Source: a virus. From it: a DNA stretch of 64,000 nt. Under the pieces are notes generated by a model. It ran no database searches and was not told the origin of the DNA. It was given only the letters and a program-made list of their open reading frames with translations. The position numbers and the translations under genes were made by a program. The stretch is taken from the IMG/VR virus record IMGVR_UViG_3300048587_000983, one strand, 5' to 3'. Shown piece by piece: positions 5,405-51,400 of the stretch (position 1 is the stretch's first letter; each line of letters opens with the position of its first letter).

Positions 5405-5437
5405 GGGCCTGCCCGGTTTTCGGGTGGGCCCGATTTT
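5405..5437 (+). terminator. possible terminator hairpin
   Basis: GGGCCTGCCC/GGGTGGGCCC stem with 7-nt loop, then GATTTT; intergenic. Confidence 0.45.
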
Positions 5438-5467
5438 CCCAACCGATTGGATCTTATAGGAGCCTGA

Positions 5468-30593: not shown

Positions 30594-30657
30594 TTCGCGG
30601 ATTTCCCCTTGTGTCTGTCCGCTAAAAACTCCACCAAAAAGCTTATTCCCAGAATTT

Positions 30658-31011
30658 TCAGCCGATTCGCATGCCCGCCTCCAGCTCCCACGGATAGATA
30701 AGCCGGATTTTCTGCTCGCAGCTGTCACAGCGGGAGGGCCGTTCCTCGATGGGAAGGGGCATGGTATCGCAGTCCTCGAAAAAATAGTTTTTGCAGACCG
30801 GGCAGTCGGCGCCCCAGGCCGAATGCTGGTGGCCTTTTCCGAAGAGGGGCTCGGCCACCACAATCCGCTCCTTTTCGGGATCGGGCTCGGTCTTTTTCGG
30901 CCTCGGCCTATAAAGGTAGCGGATGACCTCGCTGAACGTCCCAAGGCCGGCATCGTCCTTGGCGAGCAAAAGAAGGCGGAGGGCTTCGTCGTCGATAAGA
31001 ATTTCATGCAT
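30658..31011 (-). CDS. ribbon-helix-helix-like domain plus zinc ribbon
   Basis: EILIDDEALRLL..AK....TFSEVIRYL (RHH antitoxin-like) and CPVC..CDSC. Confidence 0.55.
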   Translation of the reverse strand: MHEILIDDEALRLLLLAKDDAGLGTFSEVIRYLYRPRPKKTEPDPEKERIVVAEPLFGKGHQHSAWGADCPVCKNYFFEDCDTMPLPIEERPSRCDSCEQKIRLIYPWELEAGMRIG

Positions 31012-31270
31012 CGGCATCGTCAGGGCTCCCCAGCTTGATTCTGGCGGCGAGCTGCGACTTCAGGATCTCAATGGCGCCCAAAACGTGGAGCTTGCTACAC
31101 GTTCCGATGCTTGTGGCAAAACGCGTGCTGCCGTCCTTCATGATCCCGGTGACTGCGATGGCATCGAGCTTGTCGTCGATGGCGTCCTGCAATATCTCCT
31201 TTATGGCGTTGACGCTCTGTTCTTTGACCTGGTCATTCGACTGATGTTCTGTCATGCGCTTTCCTTTCAT
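31004..31270 (-). CDS. hypothetical protein
   Basis: 88-aa ORF; AIAVTG..KDG......LGAIEIL pattern seen in small phage proteins. Confidence 0.65.
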   Translation of the reverse strand: MKGKRMTEHQSNDQVKEQSVNAIKEILQDAIDDKLDAIAVTGIMKDGSTRFATSIGTCSKLHVLGAIEILKSQLAARIKLGSPDDADA

Positions 31271-31274
31271 GCAT

Positions 31275-31307
31275 AAAAAAAGCCGCTCCCCTGCAAAGGA
31301 GAACGGC
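31275..31307 (-). terminator. rho-independent terminator
   Basis: GCCGTTCTCC-TTTGCAGG-GGAGCGGC followed by T7 on the - strand. Confidence 0.65.
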
Positions 31308-31339
31308 CCCGGAATCGTTTGAAGACGTGATCTATGGAT

Positions 31340-31645
31340 CTAGGGAGTTTGAGACTCTCCATGGTCAGCTGTTCCTTTTTCCGTGGGCTTTTGCAGCGGG
31401 CCCTGGATAATCTCGGCCGCCCTGAGTGCTGCACCCATAAACAAACGCCCAAGATGCCACAAGCCGAGGGCGAAAGCATAGGCAAAGACGATGGGCATCC
31501 AAACAAAAAAGAGGGCGACGAGAGCCCAACCGATCGCCATATAGACGAGCGTTCTTGGGGTGAGGCTGATGCCCGGCAGAGCACCCGCGATCATCTGCCA
31601 CTCTTTTTTGAGATCTTCCTTCTCGTTGGCTGCGTCTCTTTGCAT
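31340..31645 (-). CDS. membrane protein
   Basis: Two TM segments. Confidence 0.6.
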   Translation of the reverse strand: MQRDAANEKEDLKKEWQMIAGALPGISLTPRTLVYMAIGWALVALFFVWMPIVFAYAFALGLWHLGRLFMGAALRAAEIIQGPLQKPTEKGTADHGESQTP

Positions 31646-31734
31646 TTGGATCCTCTTTGCTATGCCCTCAAGGCCGCGCCCAAGAGCGTTTTGAAGAAAA
31701 CGTGGTTATGGTTAGAGGTCAGGATGCGCTGGCA

Positions 31735-33074: not shown

Positions 33075-33362
33075 ATGAGTTACCACGACGATCTGCCGGT
33101 TCCGTTTGGTTATGAGGTGCCTCAGTTCGTCAAACAGCTTCTTGAAAACTTTGACGTCTGTCTTTTTCAGATGCGCCTCGATCCGGATCCCGATGCGCAT
33201 CTCAGCATCATCCGAAACCTTTACGTCCACGACCTCATTGTCTCGGCAATTGTTGCCCTCAACATGCCGAAGGAAAAGGAGGCCCTCGTAAAGGAGCTCT
33301 CCCAGCAGCTTGAAATTTTATCGGCGCTCACAAACCCTATCGAGGAGGACCTGAAGAACTAA
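33075..33362 (+). CDS. hypothetical protein
   Basis: 95-aa ORF, SD AAGGA, convergent with terminase. Confidence 0.6.
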   Translation: MSYHDDLPVPFGYEVPQFVKQLLENFDVCLFQMRLDPDPDAHLSIIRNLYVHDLIVSAIVALNMPKEKEALVKELSQQLEILSALTNPIEEDLKN

Positions 33363-36300
33363 GCCTGCGGCCCGTCGAGCGCCACGGCGTCGAGGGTATA
33401 GCGGCGGCTTTTTCCTGTCATGATATCGGACATGAGTTTCGCATAGTTCATCGAATGGAAATAATCGTCGGGGTCGGAGGGTCTATGATCATATTTTATC
33501 TCGCGGCGATATTCGTTGTACTCGGCGTAAATGCCAAGAATATCCTTTGCAAACGGCTCAAAGTCCTTCCAGCGCGGAAAAAGGATAAGACCGTGTTTCA
33601 TATCAAAGAAAAGCTCTGACATGATGAAGTTTCGCTGCAGTTGATAGCGGTAGCCGATAGCATCCCACTTCATTCTTTGCTTGAGCTTGGGCATATACTG
33701 AAACTGGGCCACGCGGTTGGGGCCAAAGGTCCGCATGAGGACGTTGTTAACCCCCCAGCCGTGCCCCCAGTCGGCACCGATAAGCTTGACGCCAAGAAGC
33801 TGGCAGATGCGCGTGATGTCTTTAACGACAAAGTCCGGATCCACCTCGCGTCCTTCGTACCGTTTCGCATAAAAGACTTTCCAGTGTTTCTGCGAGACGT
33901 AAGCCCCTATCGTGAGAACGGTATAGCTTGCGTTTCGTATTTTCCCGGAAGGCGACTTCTCGGAGCCATCATTCCCCTCGCCCCAATCGACGCCGGCCGT
34001 CAGACCCCATTTTTTGGCTTCCGCCTGGGCCGCGCGAATGCCTTCGGGGGTCGTGAGGTTCCAGAGCGAATAGTCGCCGCAGGCCTCGATAATCTCATCG
34101 CGCGTTATAGGCTTGGATGCCGAGTCGTAGGAAAGGCCAAGCACCTCGTTTGCAAGCTGCCCGTAGGGATAGTTGTCCCTTTTCCAGAGAAGCTTCATCC
34201 ACTGATCGTAGAGCCCGCAGATCCACGGCACCATGAGCTGGGGGACGCGGAAGCCCTTGATCATGTTGTTCGGATAAAACTCAACCCACCGGCCCGTCGA
34301 AGGGTCGATCGGCTTATGGCATTTTTTGCAAATGGGGCCAGGCGGAAGGCGCTTCGTTTGATACCACTCGGTCGGGCCGATGTTTTCCTCGTCGAGAAAA
34401 TTCCACTTGCCGCAGTGTGGGCACGGCACCAGCCACTCGGCCTGTGTCGTGGACTGCCAGTAGATCTCGATCGGGTTGTCGTGGGACTTCGGTGTGCCCG
34501 CCATGAGGTTGGAGGCGTCGGGAAAGTGGGACGTACACTCCATGATAACGGGAATTTCTGTCGTGAGGAAATCCTGGATCTCGTCAAGGCAGAGCACCCT
34601 CGCCGATATACCCCTCGTTCTATCCGCCGAACGGAATGCAGAGCGAAGGAAGATGTAGCTGCCGTTTGTGAAGCCCTTCTCAAAGACCTGAGTCGAAACC
34701 GAGCTATCCTGAAAGTAGCGGGCGATGAGAGGCGAGCGCTCGATTGCCGGCCGCAGCTTTTCGTTCGAGAACTGCCGCGTCTGAGTGTGCGACGGCGAGA
34801 CGTAGAGGGCCTTGTTGTAGGGGATGACGACCGAGGTGACGGTGAGGTTATTGGCAAGGAAGGTGGTGTTGTGCTGCACCAAAAAATCTGAAACATAGGT
34901 GTGAGTTTCAGTTTCTATGCCCCAGGTGTCTTGGACACCAATATCCTCAATTGATTCGATCTGGTCCCAGATTATGTCAGCTGCTAAAACGTCTGCCAGG
35001 TCTGGATCACAGAGCGTCTCGTTTATTTTTCTTATCTTTCCGAATGTCGGGGCATAGCTTCTATTGATTCTAAGACCTTGAGATTGAAGACCAGTTCTTT
35101 TCCAGTAGTTGCCGCCACGGCGTCTTGCCAATTCAACAAGATCGTAAACCTCGCTCGGTAAAGTATCGAGGTTACTATTGGAGGCCGTTCCGGGTAAAGA
35201 AAAGGGCTTGCCTGGAATCGGGCCGATTTTATTATAAAACGCCTCGATTGAATCTCTTGTGACGACACGAAGGATATAGGCCAGCTGCCCTCCGGTTGAC
35301 GGGCGATTCTCACGCACCGTAGTTACAATGCCGAATCTACGGAGCAAAAGACGAACCTGCCTCGCCAAAGTCTTGCTTGTAGTACAAAAGACGAGGTCTA
35401 TCTTCGATGAGGTTACGTTCTTGCAATGCCCGTCAGTGGCCCAAAGCCCCCGTAATAGTTGAACAGTGGAATCTGGCCCCAACTGCATCGCCTTGGAGGG
35501 GATGGTTTTTTCGGAGGCCCGTTTTCCAAAGATGCCGGTCTCCTGAAAATATTGATAGATCTGAGATTTTTTGGATATGTAGTAATTCCGCGTGCCTGAG
35601 CGCGGGTCGATCGAGAACTCGCAGGGGCCGTAGAGCGACTCAAACCAGTCTTGGACGACAGGGTTTTTTGCTGTAAACCTTTGGCAGTTTTCTGTCATGG
35701 AGCCATCGCCGATCATCAGCCCCAGTAGCGCGGCCGTGGGGTCCTCAGCCTCAAGAAAAAAACCCTGAGTGCGAAGACTCGCTATGCGGTCGCCTGGTCT
35801 GAGGTCGGCTGCCTGTCGCCACCCGAGCAGCATCCGCAAGGGGTGGTTATGGGTAACCTCCACGGTGGAGCCGAGGCGTGTTCGGATCCTAAGACAGGGT
35901 TTGGCTCCGTTAAACTCCGCCGCTATCACGCGATCCGCAGTCTGCCTGCCGTTTTCGCCAAGCGCCACTATCTCGTCGCCAGGCCTAAGGTCACGTATGG
36001 CTTTCTCTTCACCATATCGCGTCAAAACGAGGGACGTGCCGGTCTGGCACTTCTCCACTTGGCGGGCAGTCTTAAGAAGGATTCGCTTGAAGTTGCCGTC
36101 GTAGATCGGGCGGAGATAGCCCCTTCCGGTGAAGTCGAATTTATGGCCGTCAAGATAGATGAGGTTTCGCACAAAGTCCGACTTTTTGGCCTTCAGGATC
36201 TCCCGGAGCGTTCCGTCCTGGTTGACCGTGCTGCGGAACGCGGCCACCGTCCGCTCGGAGACAGCAGGCGGTTTGTCGTCATACATCCGCGCCTCAAAGG

Positions 36301-36376
36301 CGTCCGATCCCAGCTCTTCCTCGAGATCGATGTCGTCACCGATCCGCTTGTCACCGTTGTCACCGATTGTTCCCAT
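33359..36376 (-). CDS. terL: terminase large subunit (lambda GpA-like) precursor containing an intein; 611 aa after splicing
   Basis: P-loop KTARQVEK/TT, Walker B LCLDEIQD, AGTPK, VPCPHCG zinc ribbon, nuclease AGVDWG and DDYFHS. Confidence 0.92.
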   Translation of the reverse strand: MGTIGDNGDKRIGDDIDLEEELGSDAFEARMYDDKPPAVSERTVAAFRSTVNQDGTLREILKAKKSDFVRNLIYLDGHKFDFTGRGYLRPIYDGNFKRILLKTARQVEKCQTGTSLVLTRYGEEKAIRDLRPGDEIVALGENGRQTADRVIAAEFNGAKPCLRIRTRLGSTVEVTHNHPLRMLLGWRQAADLRPGDRIASLRTQGFFLEAEDPTAALLGLMIGDGSMTENCQRFTAKNPVVQDWFESLYGPCEFSIDPRSGTRNYYISKKSQIYQYFQETGIFGKRASEKTIPSKAMQLGPDSTVQLLRGLWATDGHCKNVTSSKIDLVFCTTSKTLARQVRLLLRRFGIVTTVRENRPSTGGQLAYILRVVTRDSIEAFYNKIGPIPGKPFSLPGTASNSNLDTLPSEVYDLVELARRRGGNYWKRTGLQSQGLRINRSYAPTFGKIRKINETLCDPDLADVLAADIIWDQIESIEDIGVQDTWGIETETHTYVSDFLVQHNTTFLANNLTVTSVVIPYNKALYVSPSHTQTRQFSNEKLRPAIERSPLIARYFQDSSVSTQVFEKGFTNGSYIFLRSAFRSADRTRGISARVLCLDEIQDFLTTEIPVIMECTSHFPDASNLMAGTPKSHDNPIEIYWQSTTQAEWLVPCPHCGKWNFLDEENIGPTEWYQTKRLPPGPICKKCHKPIDPSTGRWVEFYPNNMIKGFRVPQLMVPWICGLYDQWMKLLWKRDNYPYGQLANEVLGLSYDSASKPITRDEIIEACGDYSLWNLTTPEGIRAAQAEAKKWGLTAGVDWGEGNDGSEKSPSGKIRNASYTVLTIGAYVSQKHWKVFYAKRYEGREVDPDFVVKDITRICQLLGVKLIGADWGHGWGVNNVLMRTFGPNRVAQFQYMPKLKQRMKWDAIGYRYQLQRNFIMSELFFDMKHGLILFPRWKDFEPFAKDILGIYAEYNEYRREIKYDHRPSDPDDYFHSMNYAKLMSDIMTGKSRRYTLDAVALDGPQA
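34868..36049 (-). mobile_element. intein with LAGLIDADG homing endonuclease (394 aa)
   Basis: Starts Cys (CQTGTSLV), ends VQHN before Thr+1; LAGLIDADG-like LLGLMIGDGS and LLRGLWATDG; interrupts Walker A. Confidence 0.93.
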
Positions 36377-37736: not shown

Positions 37737-38060
37737 CTAGGTGTGCGCTTTGCGGAATAGCTGTTCGAGCAGAGTTGCGCCGTCTCTCCCCCCAGCCAGA
37801 CGCTCGACCTCGCGCCCGTTTTTCAAAAGCACGATCGTCGGAAACGTCGTCACATGATGTTTCTGCGGCCTGAGAGGGTCTCGCTTCACCTCGACAAGGC
37901 GAACCTTTACGCTCGGATATTTACGGGAAAGGCGTCGAACATTGCCGCGGGCCGTCTCGCTCTCGCTCTCGCCGCTATCCCAAAAAAGCATTATGACGTG
38001 CTTTTTGAACTCGACCGGAGCCGCGGTTTTCCGCTCGAAGCCTTTCCAAAAGTAGCGCAT
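37737..38060 (-). CDS. thioredoxin-fold protein lacking CxxC, with FWxGFE leader
   Basis: MRYFWKGFERKTA; VIMLFW(DSGESES), VTTFPTIVLLKNGREVERLAG. Confidence 0.8.
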   Translation of the reverse strand: MRYFWKGFERKTAAPVEFKKHVIMLFWDSGESESETARGNVRRLSRKYPSVKVRLVEVKRDPLRPQKHHVTTFPTIVLLKNGREVERLAGGRDGATLLEQLFRKAHT

Positions 38061-38068
38061 CTTCCCTC

Positions 38069-40138
38069 TCAACCCGGCGCAATTTCCTGGGCCGACCTAA
38101 GCTTTTCAAGACCGTCGACCACCTCGATCAGCCTGTGCATCGACGTGCTGGCCGCCTCCTCGGGGATCTCTTTGAGCCCGATGCGGCTGGCGAGCAAACA
38201 GCTTGCAAGGCAGGAAATTGCAGCTTTCAGTTGTGGAATCTTTCCAATGAACTTAGCAATATTGTCAGGATTTACAAAGTTTAAAGCTAAAAGAGCGTCA
38301 ACCGTCTGCGCGTTGTCGATGTAAGAGGCCTCTTTCAAGAGGTCCCGGCGCAGAAGCGCGGCCACCTTTTCAGCCTTGTCGCGCAAGGGTTTTTTCGCAG
38401 CCAGCTTCTCCGAAGCAAGAGGCGGCGACGCAAGACCGTAGACCTCTGCGCGGCCGCGAACCTTTGCCTCCTTTATAACGCTGGCAATTTTCTCCCGACC
38501 GCAGCCGAGCGAGGCCAGAAGAAAACCTGCCTTTGCCTCGGAAAGAAGCGACTGGTCCCAGCCGATGGCCTGGGCATATTTCTGTGCGCCCTTGATCGAA
38601 AACTGTCCGTAGCCGGTCGATATCACATGAAGAGGAAGACCTTTTGGATTCTCTTCGGCTTCCTTGATCGCGTAGGATTCGAGCGTATCCGACACCGGGC
38701 CAAAGCTCTGCATGGGGACCCACTTCATGTTTCTCGGAAGCGTATGGTAGCCGTTCATCTCGGGCGTGATGCGGTGAAGCTCCATGGAGCCGTTGGTCCG
38801 GAGTTTGATCGGGCGGCCCATAAGATCGGCGCAAACCATTCGGTAGCCATAGGGCTCGGCCTCGATGACCCGGATCGTGACCGGGATTGTGGCCAGAGCG
38901 TGCGAAGCGTCAGGCTGATAGACGAACGTTCCCGTCTGCCCGACCTTTGGCGTTTCGTCGGGCATCCGAAAGTTGGTGTTCTTCACACGAACACCGGCGA
39001 TGCGCGGCTGGATGGTCGACATCGTTTTGCCGACAAAGATTTTGAGGTCAACCGGCTTCATATCAAAGTCGATGACTTTTGGAATAACCCAGCCCTCAAC
39101 AGTCACACCGGTTTTTGTTTTAACCCTGAAGGAGTCGAAGGTGGTCGCCTCCTCGACTATGGTTTGATCCTCCTGAGCCAGAATCACGTTGTCCTTGCCG
39201 CTCGGAAGGAGAAGAAACTTCTCTCCGTTCTGATCGACCTCATTCATCGTGTCTTCGACGTGATCGGAAATTTTTGAGACGAGCGAGTAGCAGTCATCGC
39301 GCGAGACAGGCCCCACAAGGCTTGGCGAGAAGACCTCGTCGCTATTTGAAAGGATCGAATACTTATCCGGACTCTCGCGGCGCAGCATGACGATGCTGTT
39401 TGGAATGAGCTTATCAGCACCCTGGCGGAACTCGTTCATGTTCACGCCCTGAAGATTGGCGATCTTTTTGATAAGCTTTGCGTGACCATGCTTGTGAAAA
39501 CCCGTCAGGTACTCGGGTTTTTTATTGAAAAAATCGAGGATTTTATCCCCATCCCCGACAGTCGGCGCGATCTCATCGATGAGAGGGTAGGAGGCGGTCT
39601 TCATGCCCTCCGGGATTTTCGAGACGATCGAAAGGACCTCGCCAATCGGATCCTCTTTTGCCCGCTCGGAGGCATAGGCGTAGCGGCCAAGCGAGGGCGG
39701 GTAGATTGCATTCCAGAGGTTCGCATCCTCGAAGCGCCCGAGGCCACCGTAGGTCGGAAACTCTTCGATCTTTTGAAAAGCCCCGGTTGTCATGAAGATT
39801 TCCTGGAACATCTGCGGGGTGAGAGGTAAAAGCTTTTGTTTGGCGATCATGACATCAAGGGGATAGAGCATGAAGTCTTTGACAATGATCGGAACGACGG
39901 CTGCCTTGTCGGTCGTGTTGATGATGATGGCGCCGGTCGCAGTTCCGTTCTCTTCGTCTTTTTTCTGAAACTTGACCATGACGCTCATTTCGCTCGCCAT
40001 GGGAACGCGCTCTTTAAACTTTTGGATAATTTCCTCGGGCCACTGCTCGAGATCGTTGCCGAGATGGGTGAGGCTTACATCCTGCACATCGGGCGCGTCG
40101 ATAAAAAGGTTCGCGGGCATGGTCATAGCTGTCTCCAA
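38069..40138 (-). CDS. large putative head/core protein rich in K-x-A motifs
   Basis: 689-aa ORF in the structural module, SD GGAG; KTAS, KYAQ, KIAS, KLAA, KVAA, KEAS. Confidence 0.8.
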   Translation of the reverse strand: METAMTMPANLFIDAPDVQDVSLTHLGNDLEQWPEEIIQKFKERVPMASEMSVMVKFQKKDEENGTATGAIIINTTDKAAVVPIIVKDFMLYPLDVMIAKQKLLPLTPQMFQEIFMTTGAFQKIEEFPTYGGLGRFEDANLWNAIYPPSLGRYAYASERAKEDPIGEVLSIVSKIPEGMKTASYPLIDEIAPTVGDGDKILDFFNKKPEYLTGFHKHGHAKLIKKIANLQGVNMNEFRQGADKLIPNSIVMLRRESPDKYSILSNSDEVFSPSLVGPVSRDDCYSLVSKISDHVEDTMNEVDQNGEKFLLLPSGKDNVILAQEDQTIVEEATTFDSFRVKTKTGVTVEGWVIPKVIDFDMKPVDLKIFVGKTMSTIQPRIAGVRVKNTNFRMPDETPKVGQTGTFVYQPDASHALATIPVTIRVIEAEPYGYRMVCADLMGRPIKLRTNGSMELHRITPEMNGYHTLPRNMKWVPMQSFGPVSDTLESYAIKEAEENPKGLPLHVISTGYGQFSIKGAQKYAQAIGWDQSLLSEAKAGFLLASLGCGREKIASVIKEAKVRGRAEVYGLASPPLASEKLAAKKPLRDKAEKVAALLRRDLLKEASYIDNAQTVDALLALNFVNPDNIAKFIGKIPQLKAAISCLASCLLASRIGLKEIPEEAASTSMHRLIEVVDGLEKLRSAQEIAPG

Positions 40139-40157
40139 TTTAAGGAAATCGTTTTTA

Positions 40158-40844
40158 TCATACTAGCTTACCGCCTGGCTGGCTAGGGATTCCGGCCACA
40201 GCGCCGCCTGGAGCCCCGGTCGTGACGAGAGGACTGCTGCTTGCAATCGTCGTCGTGAGCCAGACGCCCTCAAAGGTCATTTCAATGGTTTTGCCGATCG
40301 CTTTCACAAGAGGCTTTGACCGCGCCTGCGGGTTTTCAAGGTCCCACATGGGTGGCGTCAGCTGCTTTATCCAATCGTCGGCTATCCCGGCGATCGGCCC
40401 TCCGGCGCCAGCCGCCTTCAGCTGGGTCGGAAGGTTTTGGGCACTTACAGGGCCGGGGTTGATCGGCGTCGCCCCGCTCGTTCCGAGGTAGTTGAGTGAG
40501 CTGAATTTATAGGTCGTCGGCCAGCGGGTGAATTTTTCCGCGAGCACCGTGAGGAGCGCCTGGGTGAACATCACCTGCTCAGGCGAATCCTTTCCGAAAC
40601 TAGGTGCGGTGGCAACGAAGGGAGCCGACGTCATTACACCGCCAACCCCCGTACCGGCCCACGCTCCCACCCCTGCGCCCGTGATGATAAGGCTGTCGAA
40701 CAGGATTGAGTCCTGCCAGCTCTTCCAGGCTTTCTCCACAGCACCAAAAAGGCTTTCGATGTAGGAGACGCCCTCGGGCCCGAGAGGCATTCCGTAGAGT
40801 GCGATGGCCTGCTGGGCCATGGTCGATCCTGATGGCGCCGGCAT
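40158..40844 (-). CDS. Gly/Ala/Pro-rich virion protein (baseplate-associated?)
   Basis: 228-aa ORF with start overlapping the spike-gene stop. Confidence 0.7.
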   Translation of the reverse strand: MPAPSGSTMAQQAIALYGMPLGPEGVSYIESLFGAVEKAWKSWQDSILFDSLIITGAGVGAWAGTGVGGVMTSAPFVATAPSFGKDSPEQVMFTQALLTVLAEKFTRWPTTYKFSSLNYLGTSGATPINPGPVSAQNLPTQLKAAGAGGPIAGIADDWIKQLTPPMWDLENPQARSKPLVKAIGKTIEMTFEGVWLTTTIASSSPLVTTGAPGGAVAGIPSQPGGKLV

Positions 40845-42139
40845 TATTTCGATACCTTGACTGTGGTGGAAAACGGGACGAGCGGTGACCCTGTGAACGC
40901 GTTGATGGTTGACGGGTAGGTCAGCACGTTTTCAGTCGCGCCGGTACCTCCATCAAGCTCGATGGTGCCAAGTGCCTTTAGCTTGACGGGAGCTTTTGCC
41001 TCAAGGTTTACAGGCCCCAGCGACTGCACGTCGATCCCCGCCTTGGCGTCGATCTTCACCTTCTGAAGGGCAGTGAAGCTCATCTCGCCAGCATTGGAAA
41101 TCTTAACGGTGCCACCCGGCGCCGAGATCTCAAAATCCCCGGTGGCCAACGCATTGACCTTCACCAGTGGATTTGAGACCTCGATATCCCCGCTCTCCGT
41201 CAGCGACAGTTTGGATGTCGGATTCTTGACCTCCAAAGCCCCAGTCGCACTCAGATTGATTGTAATCAGACTATTTACGGCTACTTTAGCCGCACCTGTG
41301 GGAGAAATATCAAGCTCAAAATTTGGGATGGGACCGGACTTGAAGTTGTAGCTGCCGTCGGGGGAAATTTTTGTTCGTATCCCAATCGGTGTGCCGACGG
41401 GGGAGGGTGGGGATATTTGAAGCTCGTACACGCCGAGGTTTGAGATCGTTTCGGTGAAGCTCGGAAGTTGAACTCCCAGAACGCCAGGCACAGCAGGCCC
41501 TACCTGCCTCTTCCAGACGGTGGTGAGGTCAACCCCGCCGCGATCCTCAGTCATGATGAAGGTTCTAAGGAGGTCCCGTCGATACTCGGCCTTATGCACA
41601 GTGAGCTGGGTGATGGGATCTGATCCCCAGTCGATAGTCCCGCCGTCAGTCCTCAGTTGGTAGCGCCGGCAAAGATCGAAAATTGCCGAGCCTTTCGGGA
41701 TCATGGTCCGTCTTAATGTGTCGCTGCTTACGATCTCAATCGCCCCGTTCGATTTCACCGTAATTTTGTTGCCGGCAACGGTGGAGATGACCTTGTCACC
41801 CTCGATAAGCTTTGCTGGTTCATCGCCTGTGACCGTCGCAGCGTTTCGGGAGAGAGGCTTAAAAAAGCCAAAAATAAAAGGTTCGCCATCGACGTAAAAA
41901 ACAAGCCCTATCGAATTTTTGCGAGGTATTGAGGTGGACTCATCGCCTTCCGGATTACTATCTAGGTTGACCCACTGGCATCGAGGGATGTAATTATCAT
42001 TAAGACTACCCTTACCCAGAAATGTGACAACCGTGCAGTAGCGCTCCTTCGCAAAGACTTCGGTAATTCGTCCGAAGGCAAAACCGAAGGCCTGCTCCTC
42101 GCGGGTGGGATGCTCGCGCTCGTATATTGAAGCGTCCAT
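40844..42139 (-). CDS. Gp5/gpV/VgrG-like baseplate central spike protein
   Basis: N-terminal OB-fold pattern (FGRITEV...W......G.ES.IP...GLV) and C-terminal beta-helix repeats (I.IS.TG...V). Confidence 0.75.
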   Translation of the reverse strand: MDASIYEREHPTREEQAFGFAFGRITEVFAKERYCTVVTFLGKGSLNDNYIPRCQWVNLDSNPEGDESTSIPRKNSIGLVFYVDGEPFIFGFFKPLSRNAATVTGDEPAKLIEGDKVISTVAGNKITVKSNGAIEIVSSDTLRRTMIPKGSAIFDLCRRYQLRTDGGTIDWGSDPITQLTVHKAEYRRDLLRTFIMTEDRGGVDLTTVWKRQVGPAVPGVLGVQLPSFTETISNLGVYELQISPPSPVGTPIGIRTKISPDGSYNFKSGPIPNFELDISPTGAAKVAVNSLITINLSATGALEVKNPTSKLSLTESGDIEVSNPLVKVNALATGDFEISAPGGTVKISNAGEMSFTALQKVKIDAKAGIDVQSLGPVNLEAKAPVKLKALGTIELDGGTGATENVLTYPSTINAFTGSPLVPFSTTVKVSK

Positions 42140-42213
42140 TCCGGCATTTCTCCGTGCATTCTCATGGGGTTTCTGGTCAGTCCCGAGTATATAGCCTTAG
42201 GAGCCATTTGCCG

Positions 42214-42768
42214 ATGTCATTTCAAAAAACGATTTTATGCGGCGAGATCATCACCGACCCCGAGCTCAGATGGAACCAGGCGGGCGTCGCCTGCTGTGCG
42301 TTTCGCTTGAAGACGGCGGAGAGCTGGATCGGTCCGGACGGCAGCGTGCGCGAGGACGAAGAGAGGCATCGCGTGCTCGTGTGGGGAAAAGACGCAGAGC
42401 GCATCTCAAAGGATTTCAAAAAAGGCCACCTCGTAGTCGTCGAAGGTCGGAACAAAACAAGGGCCTGGAAGAGCGAGAACGGGGTCACGATCGACATCAC
42501 GGAGGTGGTGGCCGTACCTAACGGCGTAAGGTTTTGCGGAGGAGCCGCCCTCGCCGAAAGTCGCCCCGCACGACCCGAGGCTTTCCCGGCTCCTCGACAG
42601 GATCCGCCTCCTGAGAGCGCCAAACAACCGTCCCCGGCAGCTCCCGAGGCTGCGGTAAAAGAAGAAAAGCCTTCCGCTCCCAAAAAGAAGACTCCAATCA
42701 AAGCCGCCGCCCCCAAGCCCGACAAGGTTCCCGTGGACCTCGCCGTCGCAGACGATTTACCCTTCTGA
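42214..42768 (+). CDS. ssb: single-stranded DNA-binding protein
   Basis: L.GEI..DPELR, HRVLVWGK.AE, KGHLVVVEGR..TR.W, acidic tail DDLPF. Confidence 0.95.
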   Translation: MSFQKTILCGEIITDPELRWNQAGVACCAFRLKTAESWIGPDGSVREDEERHRVLVWGKDAERISKDFKKGHLVVVEGRNKTRAWKSENGVTIDITEVVAVPNGVRFCGGAALAESRPARPEAFPAPRQDPPPESAKQPSPAAPEAAVKEEKPSAPKKKTPIKAAAPKPDKVPVDLAVADDLPF

Positions 42769-42855
42769 TCGCCCGTAAACTTTACGGCTTGAGTTTTTCC
42801 GCAGGTCAGCCCAATATCGGGCTGGCGATGAATTAACACCGACCGAGGAATCAGT

Positions 42856-43179
42856 ATGAATTTGAGTGAGTTGACAGACCGAGTGGCCGCAGCTAGCGGA
42901 GCCAGCAAGGCTCAAACACGCGAGATAATCAAAACAACATTCGACGCCATGCAGCTTGAGGTCGCCAAGGGTGGCCGGGTTTGCATCGTCGGCTTTGGAA
43001 GTTTTTACCCCTTCGCCCGAAAAGAACGGGTGGGGCGTAACCCCCAGACGGGAGAAGAGGTAAAAATCCCGGCAGGCCCCGTGCCACGCTTTAAGCCGGG
43101 CAAGGAGTTCAAGGATACGATGGCCAAGGAGAGTCCGGCAAAAGCGCAGCGTCGCAAGGCCAACCGTAAAAAAGATTGA
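42856..43179 (+). CDS. hup: HU family DNA-binding protein with basic tail
   Basis: GFGSF...RKERVGRNPQTGEEVKIPA..VPRFKPGK. Confidence 0.95.
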   Translation: MNLSELTDRVAAASGASKAQTREIIKTTFDAMQLEVAKGGRVCIVGFGSFYPFARKERVGRNPQTGEEVKIPAGPVPRFKPGKEFKDTMAKESPAKAQRRKANRKKD

Positions 43180-43296
43180 AGGTGCACCGGAAGCTCCGGC
43201 TAATCCTTCCCTGTGAGTTTTCCGATAGAGTGCCAGTGCTCAATAGGCTAGGCTGATCTTAAGACCACCGAAGCTTTGCTGGGCAAGGAGGGCCGT

Positions 43297-43479
43297 ATGA
43301 ACGGTCTGACGACTGGCCTCCCTATTTTTCTGCGGCGCTTTCTTTGCCGCTTTCTCCCTCATTCCGACAGAAGGCTGGGCCCGGATCGAAACGAGCTGTG
43401 GGCAGACGGCGATCTGTCCCCCAGCACGGAAGTCTGCATCTGCAGGCGGTGTCTCAGAGTGAAGCGGAAACCTGCCTAG
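43297..43479 (+). CDS. small Cys-containing protein
   Basis: SD AAGGAGG; CICRRC. Confidence 0.55.
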   Translation: MNGLTTGLPIFLRRFLCRFLPHSDRRLGPDRNELWADGDLSPSTEVCICRRCLRVKRKPA

Positions 43480-43661
43480 CCCCTTCTTTTTTCAAAGCCT
43501 CGCCAGAAAGCTTTTTTCTCTTCGTGATCTTCATGGAGACCGACCTTGGCTTCGAGCTTTTGCTCTTTCGGGCTTTCCGCAGCTTCCTGCTCCTTTGATT
43601 CCCGCCGCTCATGGCTCAGAAGGAGCGCTTTCAGATCTTTCTTCGACACATCGTCTCTCAT
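43476..43661 (-). CDS. small charged protein with C-terminal FWxGFEKR motif
   Basis: ATGA overlap with the SNF2 stop; ends AFWRGFEKRRG. Confidence 0.65.
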   Translation of the reverse strand: MRDDVSKKDLKALLLSHERRESKEQEAAESPKEQKLEAKVGLHEDHEEKKAFWRGFEKRRG

Positions 43662-45088
43662 GGCTTTTCGCTTCCTTTTTCACGGAGAATATTCAAAAAC
43701 TGGTCGTTCAGAGCATCCTTTTGCGCCGAGAGCATGTCGAGGTACTCATCCACACCAGAGTCCGCTTTCCTGCGTAAAACTCTCTGCAGGAAGGTTTTTG
43801 GAACGGTCGAATGGAACTTCTGAACATGGACATTCCTCTCTTCCGGCGGAAGGTGCTCATGGCTTTTAAAGCGGACGCCCCGGCCCTCAGCCTGCTCCAG
43901 CCGTGAGGTGTTCCAGTGCGGTTCCAAAAGCTGCATCAATTTTGTGCCTTTGAGGTCCAGGCCTTGAGCGCCTGCGCCAGAGATGAGGAGGGCCTTTGCT
44001 CGTCCGGCATTATAATCCTCCACCGCTTGCTTTCGTTTCGCATCAGAGAGTGTCCCGTCAAATACAGCGTGTGGAACACCAAGATTGGCAAGATGTCGCG
44101 CATATTCCTTCACTCCGGAATCGAGGTAGTTTGAGTAGACGACCGCCTTGAAGTTAGGGTCTTTTTGCATACGTTTTTGGAACTCGTCGATCGCCCGCTG
44201 AATTTTTGGAGAAGTCTCCGTTCCCCCAAACCCTCTCGTGCTATTTGATATTTGCCGCGGTCCGGAAAGGAAGGAATTGAGCGACTTGCTCTCCTGTTTG
44301 TTTGGCGGCAAGCCTCGACGAATCTTATAACGAAGCCCAGGACCTGCCTTGTCGAGGACGAAGTCGTAATATTTCATCTGCTCGGCATTCATCGGGACCT
44401 GGATCGTCTCGCGGCTCACAGCGGGAAAGTTCTCCCGCGCCGGCGCGTGATAGTCCACATAGCCCTTCACGAGATCAGCGAAGCGCTCGGGGTTTTTGAT
44501 TTTGTACTCGACCCCTGGTTTTGCCCCATGAAAGATTCGGGCCAGGAGTCCGGGGCTTTTCATGACCTCTGCTATGAAGGCCTTGTCGAAGGCCTTGGGG
44601 TCGGACGGTATTTTCGTATCGCCACGCACCATGGCCATAAGAGGGCCGATCTCGTGCGGGTAGTTGCGGATAGGAGTGCCTGTGAGAAGAATCCGCTTGT
44701 CGTAATCGCGCGCCTTTTGAATCATCTCCTGAGTCCGCTTGCTGTCGGTGCGACCGAGCATGTGGGCCTCATCGACCACAAGAGCGTGGCCCGTAGGTGG
44801 CGTCTTCACGGCCTTTTCGTAGCTCATGATGTTCGGCTTGTGGCCAGTCGTATGCTTTTGTACCTCTTTCGCATAGTTCTGACGAAGAGCCGCTGGTACA
44901 ACGACATCGGTTTCGTCACCTTGCGTCGCGGCCAGGGAGGTGAGCGTCTTGCCGCTTCCAAGGCCGTGATAGACAAGAACGCCCGGCTTTTTACCGAGCC
45001 TTTGCTGAACGCGGATCTGCTGCGGCTCCAGCTTGGTTGTGGTTTTTAGTTTGGCTCTCTTCTCAAAACCCAGCCAGAAGCTGTGCAT
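43658..45088 (-). CDS. SNF2/SWI2-like superfamily 2 helicase/translocase with FWxGFEK leader (476 aa)
   Basis: HGLGSGKT, VVDEAH, LTGTP, GAQGLDL, EPHWN..EQAEGRGVR; SD GGAGGAG before ATG 45088. Confidence 0.92.
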   Translation of the reverse strand: MHSFWLGFEKRAKLKTTTKLEPQQIRVQQRLGKKPGVLVYHGLGSGKTLTSLAATQGDETDVVVPAALRQNYAKEVQKHTTGHKPNIMSYEKAVKTPPTGHALVVDEAHMLGRTDSKRTQEMIQKARDYDKRILLTGTPIRNYPHEIGPLMAMVRGDTKIPSDPKAFDKAFIAEVMKSPGLLARIFHGAKPGVEYKIKNPERFADLVKGYVDYHAPARENFPAVSRETIQVPMNAEQMKYYDFVLDKAGPGLRYKIRRGLPPNKQESKSLNSFLSGPRQISNSTRGFGGTETSPKIQRAIDEFQKRMQKDPNFKAVVYSNYLDSGVKEYARHLANLGVPHAVFDGTLSDAKRKQAVEDYNAGRAKALLISGAGAQGLDLKGTKLMQLLEPHWNTSRLEQAEGRGVRFKSHEHLPPEERNVHVQKFHSTVPKTFLQRVLRRKADSGVDEYLDMLSAQKDALNDQFLNILREKGSEKP

Positions 45089-45110
45089 TACCGTTTCTCC
45101 TCCGGAAGAT

Positions 45111-45491
45111 TCAAATGGTGCCAAGCATAAGCTCTTCGTCTTCGCCCGTTCGCGCAAGATAGCGGAGGTATTCCTTCTGTTCTTTTGGAGGCATGGCGAG
45201 AACTCTTTTGGCTTCCTCGATACCCCGCTTCTGGGCGATCGCCCTAAGGACCCCGGCCAGCCCGCCGACAGCCAAGCCGGCCGCACCTCCGGCAAAAGCC
45301 CCAGGGACAGCGCGGTCCGCGGCACCGAAAAGAGCCCCCGTAACCCCGCCTAAACCAGCTCCGACGAGACCTCCTTTTAGTTTCGACAGCGGTTTTTTCT
45401 GCGCTGATTCTTCGAGCTCTTTTTTAAGAACACGAGCCTCGTAATCGTAGTCGTAAGCCCGCTTTTCAAAGCCGTTCCAAAATGCATGCAT
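45111..45491 (-). CDS. glycine-zipper membrane protein with FWxGFEK leader
   Basis: MHAFWNGFEKRA; GGLVGAGLGGVTGALFG and GAFAGGAAGLAVGGLAG; TGATG coupling to the RNAP gene. Confidence 0.8.
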   Translation of the reverse strand: MHAFWNGFEKRAYDYDYEARVLKKELEESAQKKPLSKLKGGLVGAGLGGVTGALFGAADRAVPGAFAGGAAGLAVGGLAGVLRAIAQKRGIEEAKRVLAMPPKEQKEYLRYLARTGEDEELMLGTI

Positions 45492-48400
45492 CAGTATTTC
45501 CCTTCCTTGCCTTTGCCAAACTCCGCTCCGTAGGCGAACGCCGGGATCGGATGGTAGTCACTCGTATTCGTGCTCCAGCCTTGCGAGGCCCCGGTCGTCA
45601 GCGCGCGCTGCAGCTGCTGATAGCCGAGAGCAGCCATCCAGTCTTTTCTCAAAAGAGGCAGATTGCGCACGGATTTGAGAAGTGGCGCATGAACTATGGG
45701 ATCCTTTTGAATCTTAACCGTTTTCACCGTGGCCGAAAGCCGGGAGATGTCCTCAGGGGTCATCTCGTGCCCCGCGCGAAGGCCTCCGGCAGACTCGGCG
45801 AGCTTAAAGCCGAGGCTCTCTTCGATCGGCACGTCCTGGGCGAGGTTTTTGTTGTGGTGCTGGGCCACCGTATAGGGGATCACATCCCCCGGAAGATAAC
45901 CCGTCCCTTTGGGAGCGTTCTGCACCTGGGTCGTATTGCCCATGGACCGCACAACGGTCTCAAAAATCTTTTTGTGGAGATTGACCCCCTGGCCCTCGTA
46001 GCTCTTTTTGAGCTCGGTGGCGAGGTAGTCCTGGGCGGCGTCCATCCCGAGGTGTTTCACGAGATCCTGGGGCTTGATAGGCCCCTCAGAAAGCGGCTCA
46101 CCACGCCTGACCTGCGAGCCCACCTGCACGCGAAGAGGTTTGCCCTGAGGAACATGCGCCTTTGTGTCTTTACCGATCGTCACGACAAAGCCGCCACCAA
46201 GACCCTTTTCGATCTTTGTCACCCGGCCATCGACCGGGGCAAGTGGCGCAGCGCCTGCGACCTGCTTTGGCATCTGAAGAAGCTGATCGATCCGGGCGTA
46301 GCCCTGAACGTCGGCCCCTGTGCCGGCAGCCCCGCCCGTGTGGAAAGTTCGCATCACCATCTGCACCAGCGGCTCACTTATCGTCTGGCCTGCCTTGGCA
46401 CCGATGTTCTCGCCTATCTCAGGCATGTGACCGTGCTCGTCGAGGCCATAGCACTTCGCGCATGTGCCTTTTGGGGCAAGACAGCGAAGTGGCGAGCGGA
46501 CCTTGATGCTTGAAAGACCGCGTTTTTTCAGCTCGTTGACCACCTTCGTGTCAACCAGGGTATTGTGAGAAAAGCCGCCCTGATCGCCCGCGAGGAAGCG
46601 GTCGTAGACATCGGTGTCCTCGATCTTGTGAGCGACCCCTTCTTTCGTTCCGCAGTCCTCTTTTGATATGACGTTTCCGATTGTGGTCGCCATGATGTCT
46701 TTTGAAAAGGCCCCGGGCAGCGAGGTCTGGATCGCCCTATCCATCATGCCTCGACGAGCCCCGTACATGCTGATCCAGTAATCGCCGACGTCCAGGCCTT
46801 CGGCGTAGGATTTTTTTATTGGGGTCGGGATAATGCGGCCCTTTTCGTCGCTCATAAAAAGAGGGGTCGCCACGATCTGCCTGAGCTGGCTTGAGTTGCC
46901 GCGCGCCCCTGAGCGGACCATATCGAAAAGCGGATTGTCTTTCCCTTCGAGCTTTTTCTCGATGACCTTGTCGATAAGGTTCGCCGCGCGCTTGTTGACG
47001 TCCATAAGCCGGGCCTGGTCGGTGGTCGCCGCAGCGGCTCTGGATGCACTCTCGACCACCCTGTCACGGATCGTCCCAAACTGCGCAATGTCTTCAAGAC
47101 CAAGTGTAAAGCCTCTTTCGTATGCGTGCTTTTCACCTTCGGCCTTGAGGTTGGCGACGATACTCGCATAGTCCTGCGGCGGCAGCTCTTTTGAAAGCTT
47201 CATGACAAGAGCCCCGGTCGCCTTTTTATCAAGGACACCCGTGACCTTATATTTCTCAGGCAGAAAGCGATTGAGGCTCTGGCGGCCAGCCGGCGTTTTT
47301 GAAAGGTAGAAAAGCCCAATCTGCGCCTCCTGGGAGGGCTGAATCATAAGCTTGCCCGACCCCGGCTGGAAGAGATTGCGCGAGGGCTTCAGCCGCTCGG
47401 CCTCTTTGTTGGCCTCATCTCCAATCGGCACGTGAACCGTCATCGTATCGCCGTCGAAGTCAGCATTGAATCCTTGAACGATAAGAGGCGGGATCTTGAT
47501 AGCCTTGCCGTCGGTGATCTTGGGCTTAAATGCCATGATCGAGAACTTATGCAGCGAAGGGGCTCTATTCAAAAGAACATGCCGCTGCTTCATGACATTA
47601 TCGAGTGCTCGGCGCGCAGTCTGCGTTTTCTTCTTGATGGCCTCTTTCGCGTCGAGGGGGTTCAGTCCGAAGTTGCGAAGCTCGCGCACGACGAAAGGTT
47701 CAAAGAGCGACCACGCCATAGGCTCGGGCATCGCCATTTCATCGACGCCAAGCGAGGGCTCAGGGATGATCGTCCCGCGGCCGACATAGTCCTGCTGCTT
47801 TGAGAGGAGCTTGCTGATAAAGAAGCCCTCTTTTGGCTGACCACCCGTGCCGCCCTTGATCTCGGCTATAAGGCCGTCCTTCGGCTTTCCTTTCATGGTC
47901 GTATTCGTAAGACCGACGACACCCTTCACGTGCTTATAAAGATCGGCGCGGACATCAGCCTTCGCATCCTCCGAAAGCAGGTCCATGACGGGAAGGTTCA
48001 TCACCGTGTTGACGACGCCCACGTTCTGATAAAGATCGTTCACGGGGGATGTCGCCACCTCGCCCGTTGGCAGTGGGTAGATGGGTCTATAGATGGGAGG
48101 CAGCACCGGAAGCTTTCTTCGGATGTAGGCCTCTTCAGGACGAAGACCTGTCTGCTTCAGCGCCGATAGGTAGCGAAGCTTTTTGTTCATGTCGTCAAGC
48201 TTCGAGCCAGTCGCATTCTGCGCTTTTCGCGTAAGGTTCTTAAGCTCCGCGTCGACGTCCATTTTCTTTAAAAGTGTTTCGATTCCCGCGCCGCCGGTGA
48301 CGCCCGTATGCTCGGTCGTGAGGCTGCCGTCAGGTTTAACGAAAAGCTTTCCTGCAACGATCTCGTCAAATTTCCCCGAGAGCCCGAGAAGTTTTCTCGC

Positions 48401-51400
48401 TGCCTCTTCAAACGCCGGGTTTACGACGGGCTCCTTCAGCTCAAGATGGCCCCACTTGGTTCCCTTGAGGCCGCCGAAGATCTTGCCATCGAAAAACCCG
48501 CCCTTGACGGGCTGAAAGTCCTTGGCGTGATAGAAGTGCGCCTTCTGCACGCCGCCGCTGCTCATCTTTTCGATCTGGGCGTCCGTGAGAGGGGCAAGCG
48601 TGAGTTTGGTCCCCTCCTTTTGGACATCGATGCCGGCCCCCTTCAGATAGGCCATGAATTTGTCGAATACAAACGGGGCCTTGGGCGGCGGCAGCTGCTG
48701 GCCGCTACGAAGTGCCTTCCAGTATTCGTCGTTGACGTTCGCTTTCAGCGAGCTCATCTCACGAAGGTTTGCCCGCGCCCCGTGGGAGAGGAGCGAATAC
48801 ATCGTCAGAAGGTCGAGCGATTTTGAGCCTTCCTCGCCGCCTGTTTTCAGGGGCTGAAGGTTACTGTCATACGGCATCCCAGGTCCGCCCTGGCGAACCG
48901 AGAAGTTGCCGGCCGATTGCTTGAAGAGCTTCAGGATGTATGGGTTTCCGACGTGCACCTGACCGAGGCTTTTGCCAGTCGAAGGATCAAAAAGTTCTTC
49001 CTTGTCAGACACCCCGTTTTCTTTAAGAAACTTTCGAGTTGTGCCAAGATAGTTTTGTCCTGTGAAGTTTTGAACCTTGTATGGAGCCCCAGCTTTGAGA
49101 GCCGCCTTGCCTGCAGCAGACTCGTAGATCTGACCAATGTTGATTCGTCCAATAACTCCGTGAGGATTGAGGAGGATATCGACAGCTCCGCCTCCAGCAT
49201 CCTTCGGCATCTGTCCATCGGGGAGGATTTTTGTGATGATGCCCTTGTTCCCCATGCGTCCCGAGAGCTTGTCGCCGATCTTTGCGCGCTCCTCGGTTCG
49301 TATGAAGACCGTGATCGTTCCCCCAACTTTAACCACTTCAGTGACAACGCCTTCGTCCTCGCCCGTCCAGCGAACGCTGGCATCCCGCGGTCTATCCGCG
49401 AGGGTTTTGGAGATAACCGCGATCTGAGCATCCCGATTCTTCCTCTCCATTGCTGCGATGATAATATCACCCGAGCGGACGCGCGAACCTTTTTTGATAA
49501 CGCCATCAGAACCAATTTTTGAGGCGTTGTCCGGACTCAGGAGCGCCGGGTAGTTCAGCCGGAAAAGCCCCTTGTCGAGAGTTGACTGGGGTGTTACCGC
49601 GTAGGATTTTTTGTGTATGTGCTCGCTCGTGAGCTTCTCAGCCGCAGACTCCGAGATTACAATCCCGTCCTCGAAGTTGTAGCCCTTGTAGGGAATATAT
49701 GCGGCGCGCAGGTTTGTGCCGAGCGCCAGCGTCCCGCCTTTTGTAAAATTGCTCTCCGCGAGGAGCTGATCCTTTTTCACCCGCTCCCCGACCTTGACCA
49801 CGGGCGTATGATGGAGAAAGCTTTTCCGGTTGAGCGAGAAGTTATTATAGAGGCTAATCTTCCGATCACCTCCAGCCGTCGTAAGAACGATCTCGTCCTC
49901 GCCAACCTTTTTTACAGTGCCTTCTTCAGGGGCACGAATCGCCACCTGGCGCCCGACGACCTCCTCCATGGATTGGCCGGTTGAAGTTCCGACTTGAACA
50001 AGCGGCGCCTCCCGGTGCTTAAGGCCGATGGCCTGCTCCAGCATTTTCGAGGCCATCATCGCCCGGTTCCCCTGGTTTGAGGGAAGAAAGGGGACAAGGT
50101 TTGTCGATGGAGAGAAAAGGGCCTCGGCGGTTGGCGTGAAGTAATCCACCTTGGAGACGGGCACCATAACGATCTGCCCGCGGTAGAGGGCCTTGACCGT
50201 ATCGCCCTTTTGCCCCGGAAAAGCCACGTACTTCTCCCAGCTTTCAATTGGCGTGAGAGCCTCAGGCTGCCCCGTCTTTGCATTTTTCAGGATGGCCTTA
50301 AGATTCTTGCCGTCCTTGATCACGCCCATTGGAAGGTGGAGGTTGACGCCTATTCGTTCTGATTCAGGCGTGTGGACGGGGTCTATGAAACCGTAATGCG
50401 AAGGGTGGACCTGCCGCATCTCGTCTTTGATTGCATGGCGCGATGTGATCCCGCCCGAACCCATGAAAGTCGCCTTGTGTCCGCCGGATAGCATCTCAAG
50501 GGGATTTGTCTGCTCGGGCGTTGCCGCCTTGTCGTCCTGCGTGAAAAACCCCTCGACCGTAGACGAGAACGCGGCCGGGTTTACGAGCTGGCTTATCTTC
50601 ACACGGCGCGGGTTATCGACCTGTCTTCGGATCTTGCGCTCCAGCTCTGTGCGGTTCTTTTCAAGACGCTCGGCTATGAAATCCTCCACGCTATGGATTT
50701 CTTTAAACGCGAGGGAGTCCCTGTCCACGGGTTCTTTTTTTCCAAGCTGCACATCAAGAAGGTTTTTGGACGCGGCCAAGAGCATTGGCCCATCGACCCT
50801 CTCAAACGAAGTCCCAAGCACCAGTTTCGTCGTATCCGCCGGCAGAGACGTTTTTCCAAAATACTCTCTGAGACCATCTTTTTTAACCCCGAACGCGGTT
50901 TCAGCACGCTGCACCGCTTTCGGATCAGTATTTTTGTTGGCCGCCTCTAGTTTGGAACCCCAGGTTTGAGCCATGAGTACAGGAGAGACGCCGAGATGAG
51001 TAAGAATAGGATAAAGAGGAATATTCGTCTGACCCCCGCCGATTTTCTGGATGGTGAAGACACCACTCCTCTCATCAAACGCGAGGTCAAAGTTCCTTCC
51101 TCGTGCCAGGTTAACTTGGGTTTTGAGTTGTCCATTTTGCTTCCTTATCGTGTAGACGCCAGAGCGCAGGCGAAGCTGGTTGTTCACCTGATACTCGTTG
51201 CCGGCGACGATATACGACGAGCGCGCCGTTGCCGTTGGAAGAAGAAAGAGCCTCACTTTCTCCGCGCGGTCAATCACTTTTCCTGTCGAATTTTCGACGA
51301 GTGACAGCGAGGCGTACACAGGAACCCCCCATGTCCCCTCACGAAGCTTTGTCTTTGCCTGGCCGGAAAAGTCGTCCGGAGCGGCTTTGTCGTCGGTCCA

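Follow-up and report, generated by a model that had tools for sequence, protein, structure and literature searches.

The stretch of viral DNA analysed here, 64,000 nt of IMG/VR record IMGVR_UViG_3300048587_000983 (hereafter the window), encodes several proteins of unrelated fold that share a short peptide, F-W-x-G-F followed by E-K-x-A, to which we refer as the tag. We consider it somewhat probable that this is a two-part head-loading tag, which would dock its cargo in the prohead and would then be cut by the head-maturation protease, so that the cargo is released for ejection. A first-pass annotation of the window had proposed a sorting and processing tag resembling the capsid targeting sequence (CTS) of phage T4, and the support for a capsid-targeting role is circumstantial: every test run agrees with it and none refutes it. 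That support comes from the portability of the tag, its setting in virion modules, a K-x-A code in head proteins, and orthologues in Salmonella phage Arash.

Copies of the tag in the window

A six-frame scan of the window with the pattern FW.GFE[KR] gives exactly five matches, at 9679 on the plus strand and at 45079, 45482, 43508 and 38051 on the minus strand, while 200 shuffles of the window yielded none (mean 0.0, maximum 0). Four of the five begin open reading frames (ORFs), with an ATG in the register M-x-x-F-W-x-G-F-E-[KR] and a GGAG-type ribosome-binding site in front of each gene, and the common leader that had been noticed on four unrelated proteins is thus confirmed. The plus strand gene (9670-10083) encodes a 137-aa basic protein of no known Pfam family with the N-terminal tag MRSFWDGFEKKA; its tagged orthologues, of 137-141 aa and pI ~10, are found in a large relative described below (G005) and in stretches L006, L017, L025, L032. 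The three others are on the minus strand, and encode a 107-aa protein of thioredoxin fold (37737-38060; tag MRYFWKGFERKTA; Pfam PF00085 Thioredoxin, 1.4e-6) that has SGES in place of CxxC, a 476-aa SNF2-family helicase (43658-45088; tag MHSFWLGFEKRA; Pfam SNF2-rel_dom 3e-17 and Helicase_C 6e-14, with a PHROG match), and a 126-aa Gly-zipper protein (45111-45491; tag MHAFWNGFEKRA). Pfam therefore backs the folds first assigned to these three, the Gly-zipper weakly (2.4e-4). The SNF2 protein has a tagged orthologue, 59 % identical, in a second large relative (G004). The first-pass annotation also had all four leaders ending in K-x-A; E-K-x-A is indeed the usual form, but the copy on the thioredoxin-like protein reads F-E-R-K-T-A and is one residue longer. 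In a further relative, G001, the slot equivalent to that of the thioredoxin-like gene, between the orthologues of a 689-aa and a 289-aa gene, is occupied by a different tagged protein of 83 aa.

The fifth copy lies, as first reported, at the C-terminus of a 61-aa protein, encoded by an ORF found in the six-frame scan (43476-43661, minus strand) that begins with an acidic leader. This ORF aligns to residues 5-54 of a 369-aa protein of stretch L037 and to residues 215-273 of a 506-aa protein of L010, in both of which the aligned part, the leader with the first tag, runs on into a cargo domain. No cargo remnant was found 3′ of the ORF in the window, and from these alignments it appears to be a tag-only remnant. 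We note that the L037 protein (5045-6151, plus strand) carries two tags, the second near its C-terminus, flanking a domain of ~220 aa, with a 46-aa acidic leader in front; the same leader begins the 61-aa ORF and G001 116083-116508.

A degenerate copy had been suspected in 52265-52507 (minus strand), which encodes an 80-aa Gly-zipper protein with the decayed variant NIALKAFEEKLAAG, keeping E-K-x-A. The suspicion is upheld by its positional orthologues, which bear DSFIAGFEKRAA in G001 (63138-63365) and DSFMKGFLEKLAAG in a fourth relative, G002, and have a homologous Gly-zipper body; the copy is thus genuine. A possible weak variant, MKFWNAFRKPSQA, begins a short ORF at 29140-29179 on the minus strand; the tag HMM missed it and the gene call is uncertain.

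Distribution of the tag and constraint on the peptide

A degenerate DNA pattern for FWxGFEKxA was scanned against IMG/VR, the JGI metagenomes, and bacterial and archaeal genomes. The IMG/VR scan found 39 stretches with ~60 exact matches, many stretches having two to five copies. Five whole IMG/VR records of 82-152 kb (G001-G005) contain 7-9 copies each, where a reversed-pattern control gave 0. The JGI metagenomes added at least 120 further tag-bearing stretches, two of which, L160 and L170, have arrays of eight tagged genes within 5-8 kb. In these tandem arrays (L160 4634-9806 and L170 83-6161, 8-10 tagged genes) many genes are preceded by M-E-K-x-A-M, and the true starts may therefore lie further upstream and take in one more E-K-x-A site. 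Bacterial and archaeal genomes totalling 596 Gb gave 34 single matches, all in short or non-coding frames and none after a start codon, which is about the chance level by our own estimate from the information content of the pattern.

Overall there are ~260 distinct tagged ORFs in IMG/VR and the metagenomes. The first-pass annotation had suggested a pattern scan of related phages, and on these counts the tag is lineage-wide in a group of uncultured large myovirus-like phages that have sheath and tube genes and a bacterial-type RNA polymerase. No GenBank phage matched 15 kb of the window in megablast, no tag-bearing isolate was found in the collections searched (GenBank phages included), and a literature search for the motif found no paper mentioning the tag; the words 'virion', 'packaged' and 'N-terminal' are absent from a 2020 description of RNA polymerase-encoding Caudovirales.

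The tag starts 1-8 residues from the start codon in 82 of 96 and 139 of 166 ORFs. Its description as an N-terminal leader accordingly holds for ~85 % of copies; the other ~15 % are internal, C-terminal or at both ends, so the tag itself is position-independent. The internal and C-terminal copies follow a longer, near-symmetrical consensus, E-K-[KT]-A-F-W-x-G-F-E-K-[RQK]-A. Conservation reaches 90 % at F, W, G, F, K and A and at no other position. Codon usage over 98 copies (TTC 50 and TTT 48; GGC 34, GGG 33, GGA 18 and GGT 13; GAA 32 and GAG 32) bears out the earlier statement that codons differ between copies: all synonymous codons are used at tag positions, and selection therefore acts on the peptide.

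The tagged proteins

When 92 tagged proteins were compared by BLAST with the tag masked they fell into 56 clusters, 43 of them singletons, and this short peptide is thus the sole common element of otherwise unrelated proteins. Pfam matches among the 92 are to NUDIX (four proteins), SNF2 (three), DUF5661 (three), thioredoxin, DnaJ, Gly-zipper and a few DUFs, and roughly three quarters of the cargo proteins examined have no Pfam family. In NUDIX proteins the tag is N-terminal in G005 (55083), internal, after the NUDIX domain, in G004 (30973-31665) and in L038, and present at both ends in G001 (119029-119535). Among SNF2 proteins, the orthologues in the more distant L001 and L002 and in Arash-type phages are untagged and start ~14-18 residues later, and no FWxGF was found anywhere in these genomes; G001 SNF2 has a decayed version, and a single 910-aa protein of G002 combines a Gly-zipper segment with SNF2 through a linker that contains the tag-like LRGFYKAAA. 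A thioredoxin-like protein of L021 with a C-terminal tag was considered as a case of tag swapping and rejected, as it has no detectable homology to the thioredoxin-like protein of the window.

Tagged proteins have a median length of ~100 aa and are strongly basic, with a median pI of 9.9; among small conserved proteins that have no tag the median pI is 6.8 (Mann-Whitney p = 2e-12). GxxxGxxxG is present in 27 % of tagged proteins as against 10 % of the background. The proposal of cargo enzymes therefore needs amending: a few enzymes (SNF2, NUDIX) are tagged, but most of the cargo consists of small basic or Gly-zipper proteins. The tag does not behave as a signal peptide or membrane leader, there being no hydrophobic core after it and a minority of copies lying inside or at the end of the protein. 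An interfacial membrane anchor, in which the aromatic-basic peptide would hold proteins at the inner membrane of the host, would account for F-W-G-F followed by K/R, which is typical of interfacial peptides, and for the many cargo proteins with Gly-zipper segments. We regard it as very unlikely, since soluble enzymes such as SNF2 and NUDIX are tagged, a classical hydrophobic segment is found in only 7 of the 92 cargo proteins, and the invariant Gly, the E-K-x-A and the link to the head protease code described below would be unaccounted for.

Genomic setting and the head module

The minus strand of the window from ~64000 down to 33359 is a virion module that includes several structural proteins without family matches. 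G001 is collinear with it, the portal proteins being 62-70 %, the RNA polymerases 62 % and the terminases 55 % identical, and in both genomes tagged genes lie within this portal-RNA polymerase-terminase module. A second module, common to G001-G005, encodes a head-maturation protease, an acidic scaffold-like protein, two small conserved proteins, capsid, sheath and tube, and in G001, G004 and G005 tagged genes are found within it and directly after it. The major capsid protein is of HK97 fold (phrog_2522, 5e-12; NF042927, 5e-11) and is 33 % identical to Arash gp226. The candidate protease matches phrog_18299 (3.6e-9) and is 32 % identical to Arash gp222; searches of the PDB with its sequence and profile found nothing, and PF03420 (Peptidase_S77) had no match in G001-G005, a weak negative as the control genomes scored nothing either.

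The protease genes of G001 (L057, 2152-5229), G002 (L065/L064, 59040-62243) and G003 (L072, 85897-89034) exceed their counterparts in G004 and G005 by ~400 aa. The insertions begin with Cys inside two conserved motifs (after DWSMG and after GEIWG) and look like inteins in catalytic motifs. G003, G004 and G005 are without the RNA polymerase-portal block; since the break in G003 and in G005 falls at the terminase gene, and G004 has no terminase, all three are probably fragments, and phylogenetic profiling for a receptor of the tag is therefore uninformative.

A K-x-A code in head-module proteins

Sites of the form [L/F/M]-[E/D/Q]-K-x-A recur at conserved positions in the head-module proteins of the relatives G001-G005. 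The protease has one at about residue 28 (LEKTAA) and another at the end of the catalytic domain (AEKLAE), the capsid protein has one at about residue 25 (GLQKTAAAG), and the scaffold-like proteins have four or five [E/D/Q]-K-x-A sites each. When all 8000 patterns of the type a-b-x-c were scored without bias, E-K-x-A came top for the head-module proteins (64 occurrences where 10.1 are expected, z 17) and was not among the leading patterns in replication-type core genes. Counts of [ED]KxA are 83 observed with 17.4 expected in the head module, 7 with 5.3 in the tail module and 10 with 14.3 in other core genes, the corresponding z scores for K-x-A being +10.3, -2.4 and -0.2, and no gapped dipeptide outranks K-x-A in head proteins. 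Because E-K-x-A occupies conserved positions in the protease, the capsid N-terminus and the scaffold-like proteins, it is probably the cleavage code of the head-maturation protease, a prediction made from sequence. The logo of the head sites, [G/L]-[L/F/M]-[E/D]-K-[T/V/I/L]-A-[A/S], resembles the end of the tag, G-F-E-K-[R/Q/K]-A-[A/G/S].

Two window proteins are candidate substrates. A partial ORF at the end of the window (63179-64000, minus strand; 273 aa visible) is extremely enriched in K-x-A, 12 of its 20 lysines having Ala at +2 where 2.5 are expected (z 6.5), with sites that include LEKIAG, FDKTAK and FDKIAE, and it may encode a multiply cleaved head-core protein. A 689-aa virion-module protein (38069-40138, minus strand) has 12 K-x-A where 4.6 are expected (z 3.8) and five [EDQ]KxA where 0.8 are expected, four of these within residues 519-590, and is likewise a candidate for cleavage by the protease. 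The bodies of the cargo proteins are poor in K-x-A (73 observed, 115 expected, z -4.4), with A-x-K and K-A not depleted.

These observations also suit a tag that serves processing only, as a high-affinity substrate or junction of the head protease that marks cuts in pro-proteins or polyproteins, to activate them or to separate their modules, and has no loading role. The K-x-A code is common to the tag and the head proteins, internal tags are flanked by two E-K-x-A sites, the tag-like linker of the G002 fusion joins what are two genes in the window, and Arash packages SNF2 with no tag at all. Even so, we hold this to be rather unlikely. Ordinary head-protein sites have no invariant F-W-x-G-F, so the core holds information beyond cleavage; a 12-residue N-terminal propeptide has no obvious role in the activation of proteins of 50-150 aa; and a protein that is to meet a protease confined to the prohead has to enter the prohead anyway.

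Loading into the tail or ejection conduit (the tube lumen or baseplate) and not into the head interior is a further alternative, and one to which we give only a small chance. Tagged genes do follow directly on the tube gene (G001 115.6-119.5 kb and G005 54.1-55.6 kb), and the GxxxGxxxG that is frequent in the cargo is a motif seen in membrane-channel ejection proteins. The enrichment of [ED]KxA and K-x-A is, however, confined to head-module proteins and absent from the sheath/tube module, and the best documented relatives of the cargo, RNA polymerase and SNF2, are too large for the tube lumen.

Virion proteins of phage Arash

Salmonella phage Arash shares the portal-RNA polymerase-SNF2-head block with the window, its RNA polymerase being 34 %, its SNF2 protein gp217 38 % (E-value 2e-92) and its portal protein 31 % identical to those of the window. 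LC-MS of Arash virions listed 116 proteins, with RNA polymerase β (gp206) having the highest spectral count of all (3516), followed, among the proteins of interest here, by the capsid protein gp226 (1333), RNA polymerase β′ (gp216; 1210), the SNF2 helicase gp217 (1148 spectra, 38 unique peptides) and the portal gp204 (877); gp206 and gp216 both belong to the five proteins detected most (PMC10585845). As Arash is without the tag, these data show the identity of the cargo and not its loading route. A search of the Arash proteome for an analogous tag or cleavage code found no outlier short motif of comparable strength.

Proposed mechanism and points against it

In the mechanism that we favour, the invariant F-W-x-G-F would bind the tagged protein to something within the prohead as it assembles; a scaffold or core protein, the protease (through its C-terminal extension) and the capsid protein (through its inner face) are the candidates. 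The head-maturation protease would recognise the (E)-K-x-A after the core and, when the shell is complete, sever the tag. The cargo would then be loose in the head and would be ejected together with the DNA and the virion RNA polymerase. The cargo would consist of small basic proteins, Gly-zipper proteins, the SNF2 helicase, NUDIX proteins, an inactive thioredoxin fold and a J-domain protein. The scaffold-like protein carries Y-x-x-G-F-E-K-x-A and a neighbouring head protein has tag-like N-termini, so the tag may imitate an element by which the phage's own scaffold or core protein docks.

A broader proposal is that this is a general, position-independent loading system in which a tag of 9-12 residues, FWxGF with a K-x-A release site, admits any protein, that cargo is swapped freely between phages, and that RNA polymerase, SNF2, NUDIX and small basic proteins are injected as a payload for host takeover and counter-defence. 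We advance it tentatively, judging its chances to fall slightly short of even.

Several points weigh against head loading. The identity of the protease rests on the PHROG match, on gene position and on similarity to Arash gp222, itself uncharacterised; language-model leads to S78/S77 are weak, and an AlphaFold model of the protease domain from a five-sequence alignment (pLDDT 47) is unusable. About a quarter of tags have no Glu before K-x-A. The enrichment of K-x-A could partly reflect the composition of helical, E/K/A-rich scaffold proteins, and its scarcity in cargo bodies is no more than a hint, K-x-G and K-x-x-A being depleted there as well. With 116 proteins listed, the Arash preparation may include contaminants, and since Arash packages SNF2 untagged the tag is not the sole route into the head. 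A few tagged genes also lie outside virion modules, at 9670-10083 in the window and at 11.9-12.5 kb in G001.

Such genes speak for an alternative in which the tag is a short linear motif that binds a non-capsid hub (RNA polymerase, a chaperone or a replication clamp, for example) and would gather accessory factors in the infected cell. The position independence of the motif is typical of docking motifs, and the tagged SNF2 gene adjoins that of RNA polymerase, recalling the partnership of RapA with RNA polymerase in bacteria. This explanation is in our view unlikely, as it leaves unexplained both the second half of the tag, a motif enriched only in head-module proteins, and the predominance in the cargo of tiny basic and Gly-zipper proteins, whose genes cluster with those for capsid, portal and sheath.

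Other genes of the window

PHROG, Pfam and NCBIfam scans gave no family for most proteins of the virion module of the window. Those with assignments, all on the minus strand, include a 676-aa portal protein (52701-54731) whose match to Arash gp204 has an E-value of 2e-79 and whose PHROG portal match is weak. A 2008-aa single-chain β-β′ RNA polymerase (45491-51517; Pfam Rpb2_6, 3.7e-56, and Rpb1 domains) is untagged and a probable virion enzyme, judged by sequence and by Arash. The RNA polymerase ORFs of G001 (65102-72634) and G002 (90059-97510) are longer, at ~2500 aa, with an insertion of ~500 aa near window residue 1360 in a single open frame, possibly another intein. A 1741-aa coiled-coil protein (55987-61212) has PHROG matches to fibritin/SbcC-like proteins only and no BLAST match in the otherwise collinear G001. 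The module ends with a large terminase (33359-36376; Pfam GpA_ATPase; phrog_675, 1.3e-53) that contains a LAGLIDADG intein (Pfam LAGLIDADG_3 and Intein_splicing, with a Hint match too); the G005 orthologue has no intein and is 76 % identical over the extein. Beyond the module, residues 148-195 of a 437-aa protein (29694-31007, minus strand), which has a homologue in G005, match PHROG 353 'toxin' (E-value 1e-8).

Comparison with known systems

The T4 CTS consists of propeptides of 10-19 residues that are the sole common element of diverse internal proteins (IPI/IPII/IPIII and Alt), with an N-terminal part that targets and a C-terminal part that is processed by the prohead protease gp21 (PMC3012670, PMC9026906). 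Alt is processed at both ends, and the T4 protease has a site of its own near the N-terminus (PMC9026906). The tag resembles the CTS in being a short peptide (here ~12 aa) on otherwise diverse, mostly small basic proteins, in its proposed two-part build, and in a motif, here only a predicted cleavage site, that recurs in scaffold, capsid protein and protease; the double-tagged NUDIX protein would parallel Alt. gp21 cuts after L/I-x-E, whereas the predicted code here is K-x-A, following FWxGF, with no sequence similarity, and the present tag is also internal and C-terminal, has at least 56 cargo clusters and occurs in arrays of up to eight tagged genes. Because the sequences differ, Peptidase_S77 was not detected in G001-G005 and the tag is found at other positions in proteins, we regard the system as a probable analogue of the T4 CTS and not a homologue.

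According to published reports on the giant phages phiKZ and SPN3US, the proteases gp175 and gp245 mature many internal and ejected head proteins, virion RNA polymerase subunits among them, at S/A/G-x-E sites (PMC5694885, PMC7411985, PMC10052503). The likeness is in one protease with a short consensus site acting on many head proteins; those propeptides are reported to be long, have no docking peptide in common and are cut at another motif. The cargo-loading peptides of encapsulins are short and portable, may be at either terminus, attach to the interior of an HK97-fold shell and are enough by themselves to load a protein. Encapsulins differ in having no DNA, no release by a protease and another consensus, and binding to the capsid protein is here one of several candidate docking modes. 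Arash and Vibrio phages D69, D148 and D181 have a homologous portal-RNA polymerase-SNF2-head gene block but a split RNA polymerase and no FWxGF tag. In staphylococcal phage 80alpha the capsid and scaffold proteins share with ribosomal protein L27 an N-terminal motif that is removed by the host protease Prp; there too one protease takes a short common motif off proteins that are otherwise unrelated, although the motif copies a host protein and the enzyme is the host's, whereas the code described here is shared with the phage's own head module.

Apart from T4, we know of few cases in which it is understood how phages choose the proteins packed beside their DNA. If our reading is correct, the tag would be a second loading code, of independent origin and unusually clean, in which a core of five residues is invariant and is followed by a predicted release site, and it would give a predicted specificity (K-x-A) to a poorly characterised head-maturation protease. 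Since the tag is short and found at either end of proteins it is directly testable and, if it works, could be used for loading proteins into capsids. It would also be a sequence marker for virion cargo in metagenomic phage genomes without proteomics, and uncultured phages would already offer upwards of 250 candidates for injected proteins, among which anti-defence and takeover factors are likely.

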